Notes: generated by a model not told the origin, from the sequence alone. Positions 2,374-5,743 are shown, numbered from the stretch's first letter. The stretch is DNA of 64,000 bases from Escherichia coli (GCF_051903065.1 NZ_CP178438.1); one strand, 5' to 3'. Numbers and translations: made by a program.

Positions 2374-2393
2374 GTAATGATAATCGCTATCAC
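2374..2393. promoter_or_regulatory. Fur box upstream of efeU
   Basis: GTAATGATAATCGCTATCAC resembles the Fur consensus GATAATGATAATCATTATC, about 60 bp upstream of the efeU ATG; efeUOB is known to be Fur-repressed. Confidence 0.55.
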
Positions 2394-2450
2394 TGCGATT
2401 TACTTTTCTTTGCATAGATTGACTCAGAAAAACGTTTAAGGGTGGGTGGC

Positions 2451-3281
2451 ATGTTTGTTCCATTTCTCATTATGTTGCGCGAAGGGCTTGAAGCCGCGCT
2501 GATTATCAGTTTGATTGCCAGCTATCTTAAGCGTACCCAGCGAGGCCGATGGATTGGTGTGATGTGGATTGGCGTGTTGCTTGCCGCTGCGTTGTGCCTG
2601 GGCTTGGGTATCTTCATTAACGAAACCACCGGCGAATTTCCGCAAAAAGAGCAGGAACTGTTTGAAGGTATCGTGGCGGTGATCGCCGTGGTGATCCTTA
2701 CCTGGATGGTTTTCTGGATGCGCAAAGTGTCGCGCAACGTCAAAGTGCAACTGGAGCAGGCGGTCGATAGCGCATTGCAGCGTGGAAATCATCATGGCTG
2801 GGCGCTGGTGATGATGGTCTTTTTTGCCGTTGCAAGGGAAGGGCTGGAGTCGGTATTTTTCCTGCTGGCGGCATTTCAACAAGATGTCGGGATCTGGCCG
2901 CCGCTGGGTGCAATGCTCGGTCTTGCTACTGCCGTGGTGCTCGGCTTCCTGCTCTACTGGGGCGGTATTCGCCTCAATCTTGGTGCATTTTTTAAATGGA
3001 CCAGCCTGTTTATTCTCTTCGTCGCCGCAGGGCTGGCTGCAGGTGCCATTCGCGCATTTCATGAAGCCGGATTGTGGAACCACTTTCAGGAAATCGCCTT
3101 CGATATGAGCGCGGTGCTCTCAACTCACTCGCTGTTTGGCACGTTGATGGAAGGGATTTTTGGTTATCAGGAAGCGCCGAGCGTCAGCGAAGTCGCCGTC
3201 TGGTTTATTTATCTCATCCCGGCGCTGGTGGCATTTGCTCTGCCACCACGCGCAGGGGCGACAGCGTCTCGCTCCGCGTAG
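2451..3281 (+). CDS. efeU: Ferrous iron permease EfeU (FTR1 family), intact 276 aa
   Basis: Translation MFVPFLIMLREGLEAAL... with REGLE motifs; track ORF begins at an upstream in-frame GTG (2442). A single open frame, unlike the frameshifted K-12 allele. Confidence 0.93.
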   Translation: MFVPFLIMLREGLEAALIISLIASYLKRTQRGRWIGVMWIGVLLAAALCLGLGIFINETTGEFPQKEQELFEGIVAVIAVVILTWMVFWMRKVSRNVKVQLEQAVDSALQRGNHHGWALVMMVFFAVAREGLESVFFLLAAFQQDVGIWPPLGAMLGLATAVVLGFLLYWGGIRLNLGAFFKWTSLFILFVAAGLAAGAIRAFHEAGLWNHFQEIAFDMSAVLSTHSLFGTLMEGIFGYQEAPSVSEVAVWFIYLIPALVAFALPPRAGATASRSA

Positions 3282-3338
3282 CAAATACGACGCAAACTCT
3301 TGCTTAGTTACAACATACTTTAAAGGGATAGTCTCGTC

Positions 3339-4466
3339 ATGACCATTAACTTCCGCCGTAACGCATTGCAGTTGAGCGTGGCTGCGCTGTTCTCTTCTGC
3401 TTTTATGGCTAACGCCGCTGATATTCCGCAAGTCAAAGTGACCGTGACGGATAAACAGTGCGAACCGATGACCATTACGGTTAACGCCGGGAAAACACAG
3501 TTCATTATTCAGAACCACAGCCAGAAGGCGCTGGAGTGGGAGATCCTCAAAGGCGTGATGGTGGTGGAAGAGCGGGAAAATATCGCCCCTGGTTTTAGCC
3601 AGAAAATGACGGCGAATTTACAGCCTGGCGAATACGATATGACCTGCGGTCTGCTGACTAACCCGAAAGGGAAGTTGATCGTCAAAGGTGAGGCAACGGC
3701 GGATGCGGCGCAAAGTGATGCGCTGTTAAGTCTTGGTGGTGCAATTACTGCATATAAAGCGTATGTCATGGCGGAAACCACACAGCTGGTGACCGACACC
3801 AAAGCCTTTACCGACGCGATTAAAGCAGGCGATATCGAAAAAGCGAAAGCACTGTATGCGCCGACGCGCCAGCACTATGAGCGCATTGAACCGATTGCTG
3901 AACTGTTCTCCGATCTGGATGGCAGCATTGACGCCCGTGAAGATGATTACGAGCAAAAAGCCGCTGATCCAAAATTCACCGGTTTCCACCGTCTGGAAAA
4001 AGCATTGTTTGGCGACAACACCACCAAAGGGATGGATAAGTATGCCGACCAGCTTTATACCGATGTGGTCGATTTGCAAAAACGCATCAGTGAACTGGCT
4101 TTCCCACCTTCAAAAGTGGTCGGCGGCGCAGCCGGACTGATTGAGGAAGTGGCAGCCAGCAAAATCAGCGGTGAAGAAGATCGCTACAGCCACACCGATC
4201 TGTGGGATTTCCAGGCTAACGTTGAAGGCTCGCAGAAAATTGTCGATCTGCTGCGTCCACAACTGCAAAAAGCCAACCCGGAACTGTTGGCAAAAGTCGA
4301 TGCCAACTTTAAAAAGGTCGATACCATTCTGGCGAAATACCGTACTAAAGACGGTTTTGAAACCTACGACAAATTGACCGATGCCGACCGGAATGCACTG
4401 AAAGGACCGATTACTGCGCTGGCGGAAGATCTGGCGCAACTTCGCGGTGTGCTGGGACTGGATTAA
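3339..4466 (+). CDS. efeO: Periplasmic iron uptake protein EfeO
   Basis: 375 aa, [26 protein letters not shown] signal peptide, full-length match to EfeO. Confidence 0.95.
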
Positions 4467-4471
4467 GCGTT

Positions 4472-5743
4472 ATGCAGTATAAAGATGAAAACGGCGTGAA
4501 TGAACTGTCACGCCGACGTTTACTGAAAGGAATTGGTGCGCTGGCGCTGGCGGGAAGTTGTCCGGTCGCTCATGCACAAAAAACGCAAAGTGCACCGGGT
4601 ACGCTTTCACCGGATGCACGCAATGAGAAACAGCCGTTTTATGGTGAGCATCAGGCAGGGATCCTGACGCCACAACAGGCCGCAATGATGCTGGTGGCGT
4701 TTGATGTGCTTGCCAGCGATAAAGCCGATCTTGAACGGTTGTTTCGCTTGTTGACTCAGCGTTTTGCTTTTCTGACTCAGGGCGGAGCGGCACCAGAAAC
4801 GCCAAATCCGCGCCTGCCACCACTCGATTCCGGCATTCTTGGCGGCTACATTGCGCCCGATAATCTCACCATCACGTTATCGGTGGGTCACTCATTGTTT
4901 GATGAGCGGTTTGGCCTTGCGCCACAGATGCCGAAAAAGTTGCAGAAGATGACGCGTTTCCCCAACGACTCGCTGGATGCGGCGTTATGTCATGGTGATG
5001 TGTTGCTACAAATTTGCGCCAACACCCAGGACACGGTGATCCATGCGCTGCGCGATATCATCAAACACACGCCGGATTTGCTCAGTGTGCGCTGGAAGCG
5101 GGAAGGGTTTATTTCCGATCACGCGGCGCGTAGTAAAGGCAAAGAGACGCCGATTAATTTGCTGGGTTTCAAAGACGGCACTGCCAATCCCGATAGCCAG
5201 AATGATAAGTTGATGCAAAAAGTGGTGTGGGTAACGGCAGATCAGCAGGAGCCTGCGTGGACAATCGGTGGCAGCTATCAGGCAGTACGCTTGATTCAGT
5301 TTCGAGTGGAATTTTGGGACAGAACGCCGCTGAAAGAACAGCAGACGATTTTTGGCCGTGATAAGCAAACCGGTGCGCCGCTGGGAATGCAACATGAGCA
5401 TGATGTGCCTGATTACGCCAGCGACCCGGAAGGGAAGGTGATTGCGTTGGACAGCCATATCCGGCTGGCGAATCCCCGCACGGCGGAGAGTGAGTCCAGC
5501 CTGATGCTGCGTCGTGGCTACAGTTATTCACTGGGCGTCACCAACTCCGGACAACTGGATATGGGGTTGCTGTTTGTCTGCTACCAGCACGATCTGGAAA
5601 AAGGCTTCCTGACAGTACAAAAAAGGCTCAATGGCGAAGCGCTGGAGGAATACGTTAAACCTATCGGCGGCGGTTATTTTTTTGCGCTGCCGGGAGTGAA
5701 GGACGCGAACGATTATCTCGGAAGCGCATTATTGCGGGTTTAA
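4472..5743 (+). CDS. efeB: Dye-decolorizing peroxidase / deferrochelatase EfeB (Tat-secreted)
   Basis: 423 aa with twin-arginine signal SRRRLLKG. Confidence 0.95.

Follow-up and report, generated by a model that had tools for sequence, protein, structure and literature searches.

An intact efeUOB (ycdNOB) iron-uptake operon in Escherichia coli and the frameshifted efeU allele of K-12

The window analyzed here, a 64,000-nucleotide stretch of Escherichia coli DNA (GCF_051903065.1, NZ_CP178438.1), carries near its beginning three co-oriented, intact genes in the order efeU, efeO, and efeB, separated by intergenic gaps of 57 and 5 bp and accompanied by a set of regulatory sequences upstream and a repetitive element downstream (Table 1). 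The genes were identified by means of NCBIfam equivalog models with curated cut-offs together with Pfam domain architectures, and the equivalog cut-offs are exceeded by EfeU, EfeO, and EfeB alike. They are flanked by putP and phoH, a synteny that is the same in K-12, O157:H7, and ECNB21-M121. Three RefSeq genomes contain 100% identical DNA, in which the genes are called efeU, efeO, and efeB, and the identity of a RefSeq genome to the window is 100% over positions 2200-5800. The region is thus almost certainly the chromosomal efeUOB (ycdNOB) operon of E. coli in its wild-type form, and no feature of the sequence speaks against this. Farther along, the collinearity between the window and ECNB21-M121 stops at about 19.0-19.3 kb, where 23CRST027 and 23CRST031 match the window.

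Table 1. Features of the efeUOB region, in coordinates of the 64,000-nucleotide window
Feature	Coordinates	Strand	Description
Documented CpxR-binding site of efeU	2340..2354	-	GGAATGTTTATAAAA, exact match
Candidate sigma-70 promoter	2357..2384	+	TTGTAT-N16-GATAAT, read by eye from the sequence
Fur box	2373..2391	+	CGTAATGATAATCGCTATC; 7-1-7 core TGATAATCGCTATCA at 2378-2392
Two overlapping predicted CpxR boxes	2399..2423	-	GCAAAGAAAAGTAAA at 2399-2413; GTCAATCTATGCAAA at 2409-2423
efeU	2451..3281	+	FTR1/OFeT-family inner-membrane iron permease, 276 aa, intact
Codon 36 of efeU (GGT), site of the one-G loss in K-12	2556..2558	+	Located by alignment with MG1655
efeO	3339..4466	+	Periplasmic cupredoxin and M75 (imelysin) protein, 375 aa, complete
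efeB	4472..5743	+	Tat-exported (predicted) DyP-type haem peroxidase/deferrochelatase, 423 aa, complete
REP/BIME-like inverted pair directly 3' of efeB	5757..5884	+	Inverted repeat 5757-5790 / 5851-5884

The first gene was originally predicted, from the DNA alone, to be a single 276-codon frame with both REGLE motifs, and the ORF listing and the translation agree on this. The frame has one terminal stop and no interruption. The ORF listing begins it at a GTG (2442-3281, 279 aa); the ATG at 2451, which yields 276 aa, is the efeU start in RefSeq, in a genome of identical sequence. The REGLE motifs lie at residues 10-14 and 129-133 of the product, which scores 330 bits against the EfeU equivalog model NF041756 (cut-off 255), 351.7 bits against TIGR00145 (cut-off 303.8), and 299.8 bits against the Pfam FTR1 domain (PF03239), the last match covering residues 1-275. 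Its hydropathy profile (Kyte-Doolittle) has six segments above the threshold of 1.6, to which may be added the segment bearing the second REGLE motif (about residues 118-140), whose charges keep it under that value; the count of transmembrane segments is accordingly approximate. A search by sequence for a solved structure related to EfeU found no relative.

The frames of efeO and efeB each have a single, terminal stop, in keeping with the prediction that both genes are complete. EfeO combines an N-terminal Cupredoxin_1 domain (PF13473, residues 13-115) with a Peptidase_M75 domain (PF09375, residues 135-368) that displays the HxxE motif in the form HRLE at residue 217, and it scores 480.9 bits against the equivalog model NF041757 (cut-off 270) and 773.6 bits against NF007697. 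Its N-terminus is hydrophobic and ends in ANA/A, a predicted signal peptide as judged by eye and by hydropathy. The solved E. coli EfeO structure (PDB 7wgu) matches the EfeO of the window with E = 3.6e-229, in an alignment that starts at residue 27, past the predicted signal peptide. EfeB shows the two-domain architecture Dyp_perox_N (PF04261) plus Dyp_perox_C (PF20628), scores 617.6 bits against the equivalog model TIGR01412 (cut-off 428), and is matched by the E. coli YcdB/EfeB structures 2y4f, 2y4d, and 3o72 with E-values down to 2e-267, those for 2y4f and 3o72 being about 1e-265. The residues D235, H329, and R347 are present; in the numbering of the EfeB structures, we take these to be the catalytic Asp, the proximal His, and the catalytic Arg, respectively. 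As a Tat signal we accepted S/T-R-R-x-F/L-L-K followed by a hydrophobic stretch and then AxA. The Tat signal that had been proposed for EfeB is borne out on this basis, with SRRRLLK at residues 13-19, a hydrophobic region at 17-33, and an AHA/Q cleavage site at 33-36, from which export is predicted. The crystallized mature EfeB chain aligns from about residue 36, likewise past the predicted signal peptide.

The original prediction also held that the K-12 allele of efeU is frameshifted, and the comparison with MG1655 places the lesion exactly. In MG1655, efeU (b4490) is annotated as a pseudogene between putP and efeO. Alignment shows that, of the two G at window positions 2556-2557, both kept in the window, MG1655 has only one, which pins the frameshift to codon 36: the window reads CGA TGG ATT GGT GTG ATG, whereas K-12 reads CGA TGG ATT GTG TGA. 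The K-12 frame thus runs RWIV-stop, with the stop at codon 37 and a product of 36 aa; with the G restored, it encodes a protein of 276 aa that differs from that of the window at one residue (I19V). The same alignment found neither a premature stop nor a frameshift in the efeU copy of the window. The lesion in K-12 is a published one, and our mapping to codon 36 agrees with PMC3577903; the transporter of MG1655 has been described as non-functional owing to the efeU frameshift (PMC2808357). The frameshift is not mentioned in PMC9174327.

How the two alleles are distributed was assessed by exact matches in 5426 complete E. coli genomes to a 60-mer spanning the K-12 deletion and to its 61-mer intact counterpart taken from the window. 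The intact 61-mer is found in 3637 of these genomes and the deletion allele in 368, and the efeUOB locus overall is present in 5417. Of the 40 carriers of the deletion allele that were listed, most bear the names of laboratory derivatives of K-12, MG1655, C600, DH5alpha, and J53 among them. An intact efeU is therefore the norm in E. coli and the broken K-12 copy the exception, so that the notability implied for the intact gene was slightly overstated. The function was lost in the K-12 laboratory lineage through the 1-bp deletion in codon 36, a loss that the strain of the window, like most E. coli, does not share.

The DNA upstream of efeU had been said to contain a Fur-box-like sequence, and such a site is indeed present 60-78 nt upstream of the ATG. 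Of its 19 positions, the 19-mer CGTAATGATAATCGCTATC shares 15 with the Fur consensus GATAATGATAATCATTATC, a score that no other site in the 64-kb window reaches; in Markov-1 random sequences, the mean is 0.13 sites with at least 15 of 19 matches per 64 kb. The core TGATAATCGCTATCA is likewise unique in the window at a tolerance of two mismatches, with 0.34 expected by chance and at least one match in 32 of 100 shuffles. The match is modest across the 64-kb window and strong for a promoter of 130 bp. It could be argued that the sequence is a chance match in an AT-rich promoter and that Fur control of efeU is exerted elsewhere or indirectly, a reading to which the four departures from the consensus and the frequency of core matches in the shuffles lend something. 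We consider this very unlikely, in view of the rank of the 19-mer as the single best site in 64 kb and of its position inside the 130-bp promoter, where it overlaps a candidate -10 element. In addition, the site is invariant across the window, K-12, and O157:H7, and ChIP-exo and expression data from nine E. coli strains, K-12 and Sakai among them, established Fur binding and regulation of efeU, one of the 36 genes in the core Fur regulon that these strains share (PMC10164565).

The candidate -10 hexamer in question, GATAAT (2379-2384), belongs to the sigma-70-type promoter listed in Table 1. A scan with the sigma-70 consensus over positions 2000-6200 detected no plus-strand promoter upstream of efeU, and it missed this candidate because the -35 hexamer matches at only three of six positions. 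As read from the sequence, the overlap of the candidate -10 element with the Fur box would be the arrangement expected for Fur repression. The block of 138 bp that holds these elements (2323-2460) is conserved in 5417 of the 5426 genomes.

The same block contains sites, documented and predicted, for a second regulator. The sequence GGAATGTTTATAAAA, known as the CpxR site of efeU (ycdN) from Table S1 of PMC9600279, has its only exact match in the window at this position, with 0.03 expected by chance; the window is identical to K-12 here, and O157:H7 differs at a single base, having T where position 2349 of the window is C. Closer to the gene lie two overlapping boxes, GCAAAGAAAAGTAAA and GTCAATCTATGCAAA, which are position-matrix predictions at -38 and -28 of efeU (supplementary file 2 of PMC9600279). 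The first of these, an exact match that is unique in the window, is the best position-matrix-predicted CpxR box of efeU (PMC9600279). Repression of efeU by CpxR has been reported (PMC9600279, PMC3852070).

On the upstream side, the homology to K-12 ends at about 2322-2323 in a comparison anchored on the ATG, 18 bp from the CpxR site. Upstream of 2322, an accessory segment of about 2.3 kb replaces the putP-efeU intergenic DNA of K-12. It is the only non-K-12 feature nearby, and it occurs in 645 of the 5426 genomes (12%), including O157:H7. The segment contains, on the minus strand and up to window position 1269, a gene for a hypothetical protein of 447 aa, for which Pfam, NCBIfam, and PADLOC returned no match, followed by roughly 1 kb of DNA that is rich in AT and poor in ORFs, with a GC content of 0.32-0.40. 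That this segment changes the regulation of efeUOB, for example by H-NS silencing or read-through, or encodes an uncharacterized function linked to iron uptake, strikes us as highly doubtful.

On the downstream side, efeB is followed directly by an inverted pair of the REP/BIME type, whose arms of 34 nt are 74% complementary. The RNA of the pair has a predicted fold of -70.6 kcal/mol (z = -4.0 relative to shuffled controls), and a sub-threshold match to the REP-derived naRNA4 lies at 5833-5892. No canonical hairpin followed by a T-run, as in a terminator, was detected on the plus strand after position 5743 in the scan of 2000-6200. The REP-type pair likely serves as the 3' end of the transcript or as a stabilizer. 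Beyond it lie phoH and then the pga operon.

Among characterized systems, the operon of the window is closest to that of O157:H7, with which it shares gene order and protein lengths (276, 375, and 423 aa), and whose proteins are identical to those of the window at 275 of 276 residues in EfeU, 373 of 375 in EfeO, and 419 of 423 in EfeB. From the window to O157:H7, the substitutions are I19V in EfeU; I29V and K234Q in EfeO; and K4E, E6K, L12P, and D48V in EfeB. The MG1655 operon occupies the same putP-phoH locus, with a Fur box and a CpxR site identical to those of the window, and its EfeO and EfeB each differ from the proteins of the window at three residues and its repaired EfeU at one; K-12 departs from the window in the one-G loss with its 36-aa product and in the absence of the accessory segment upstream of 2322. 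The efeUOB operon of O157:H7 is functional, acid-induced, and regulated by Fur and CpxAR according to Cao et al. (2007), as cited in passages of PMC3852070 and PMC3577903. Because its proteins are nearly identical to these reportedly functional counterparts and its regulatory sites are intact, the operon is very likely functional in the strain of the window as well, as far as can be judged from the sequence.

A reading at odds with this would be that the ORFs are intact while the system is silent or impaired, either through the AT-rich accessory DNA upstream of 2322 or through substitutions such as EfeB P12L. The homology to K-12 does extend only about 129 bp upstream from the ATG, the DNA that takes over from there has the low GC content noted above, and both L12 of EfeB and I19 of EfeU are in the minority when set beside K-12 and O157:H7. 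However, O157:H7, in which the operon is reported to be functional and regulated, carries this very segment with 99.1% identity, and none of the Fur and CpxR sites falls outside the conserved block. As for EfeB, residue 12, adjacent to the twin-arginine motif on its N-terminal side, is L instead of P; the motif itself (SRRRLLK), the hydrophobic stretch behind it, and the cleavage site at AHA show no change, and the effect of the substitution is probably neutral. Silencing or impairment is therefore extremely improbable, and we retain the view of a functional operon.

For such an operon, the literature on near-identical alleles suggests a mechanism in which iron-loaded Fur would repress transcription and phosphorylated CpxR would add repression at higher pH, so that expression would be expected in an acidic, iron-poor medium. 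EfeO, presumably exported by the Sec route and combining cupredoxin and M75 domains, and EfeB, a haem-containing DyP peroxidase presumably exported by the Tat route, would then work in the periplasm, and EfeU, with its predicted seven transmembrane helices and two REGLE motifs, would move iron through the inner membrane. Ferrous iron would be taken up, probably in a process coupled to an oxidase, like that of the yeast Fet3p/Ftr1p system. The chemistry is debated in the literature, both as to whether Fe2+ or Fe3+ is transported and as to the roles of EfeO and EfeB (PMC3852070, PMC3577903).

This debate bears on a different reading of the same intact operon, namely, that the operon serves mainly not to take up free Fe2+ at low pH but to obtain iron from haem in the periplasm, with EfeB as the deferrochelatase and EfeU as the importer of the iron set free. 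EfeB and YfeX are cited in connection with the extraction of haem iron in a passage of PMC3852070, and both NCBIfam and PDB label EfeB as a deferrochelatase/peroxidase. Set against this, low-pH uptake of free Fe2+ has been shown for efeUOB (Cao et al. 2007, as cited in a passage of PMC3852070), and EfeU acts on its own as a transporter for the uptake of ferrous iron (Grosse et al. 2006, as cited in a passage of PMC2808357). The sequence does not discriminate between haem and free Fe2+ as the source of the iron, and the two roles are compatible rather than exclusive. Haem as the main source is possible, though we think it unlikely, and acid-induced uptake of ferrous iron remains the reading that we prefer.

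Beyond E. coli, EfeU can be compared with the yeast oxidase-dependent system (OFeT) of Ftr1p and Fet3p. The EfeU of the window likewise matches the Pfam FTR1 domain and keeps two REXXE motifs, and the literature treats EfeU as a homologue of Ftr1p (PMC9174327). The partners are different: EfeU has no multicopper oxidase beside it and is accompanied in the periplasm by a DyP haem peroxidase and by a protein that joins cupredoxin and M75 domains, and the oxidation step is a proposed one. Closer parallels in composition are the FepABC system of Staphylococcus aureus and the YwbLMN system of Bacillus subtilis, which are likewise tripartite and Fur-repressed and in which an FTR1 permease is joined by an M75 protein and a DyP peroxidase exported by the Tat route (PMC3577903). 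Their gene order differs from that of efeUOB, and FepA of S. aureus is without the cupredoxin domain that EfeO of the window possesses (PMC3577903).

Taken by itself, the state of the operon in this strain is an already known, species-typical state of a characterized system; the main value of the finding lies in the correct annotation of the locus, and it has little significance beyond that. For the strain, it predicts a phenotype in which iron acquisition would be better than that of K-12 under aerobic, acidic, and iron-poor conditions. For the species, it underscores that K-12 is an atypical reference at the efeUOB locus and that natural E. coli mostly keep the acid-induced EfeUOB route of iron uptake.

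An accessory segment that is not present in K-12 sits between putP and the efeUOB iron-uptake operon, and it is carried by 645 of the 5426 complete E. coli genomes in the collection, O157:H7 among them. Its junction with the conserved DNA lies 18 bp upstream of the documented CpxR-binding site that precedes efeU. The hypothetical protein encoded in this segment had no match in Pfam, NCBIfam or PADLOC, and the approximately 1 kb that follows its gene is AT-rich (GC 0.32-0.40) and contains few ORFs. Beyond the window, seven of the efeUOB matches in the same collection come from plasmid and not chromosome records, and two copies occur in a few of the genomes.

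Within the operon, codon 12 of efeB specifies Leu here, as against Pro in both K-12 and O157:H7; this residue directly precedes the SRRRLLK twin-arginine motif, which is itself unaltered. No canonical intrinsic terminator was found 3' of efeB. The gene is directly followed by a REP/BIME-like inverted pair (RNA fold z = -4.0), and the Rfam family naRNA4 gave a sub-threshold match in this region (34.8 bits versus a gathering score of 59.5). Further downstream, the long phoH ORF has the same form as the K-12 annotation; in an identical strain, PGAP annotates only the shorter form. The 3' end of phoH is overlapped in antisense by a match to the Rfam family Ysr251 (Yersinia antisense sRNA 251); at 187.6 bits, this match exceeds the family's gathering score (100).

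Features in and around the efeUOB locus (window positions)
Feature	Position	Strand	Remarks
Accessory segment	1-2322		between putP and efeU
Hypothetical gene	up to 1269	-	447 aa; window begins inside gene
AT-rich DNA	1270-2322		after hypothetical gene
efeB codon 12	4505-4507		Leu12
REP/BIME-like inverted pair	5757-5884		34-nt arms, 74% complementary
naRNA4 match	5833-5892		sub-threshold
phoH, long ORF	6088-7152		354 aa; ATG at 6088
phoH, short form	6364-7152		262 aa
Ysr251 match	6954-7147	-	antisense to phoH
IS1A, tRNA-Ser, ghrA, ycdX, ycdY	~19030-19256 and beyond		as in 23CRST027 and 23CRST031

Strain ECNB21-M121 is collinear with the window (99.97%) only to about 19.0-19.3 kb, where it has an island bearing an integrase, with IS1. 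On the far side of this breakpoint the window is instead the same as strains 23CRST027 and 23CRST031 (100%).
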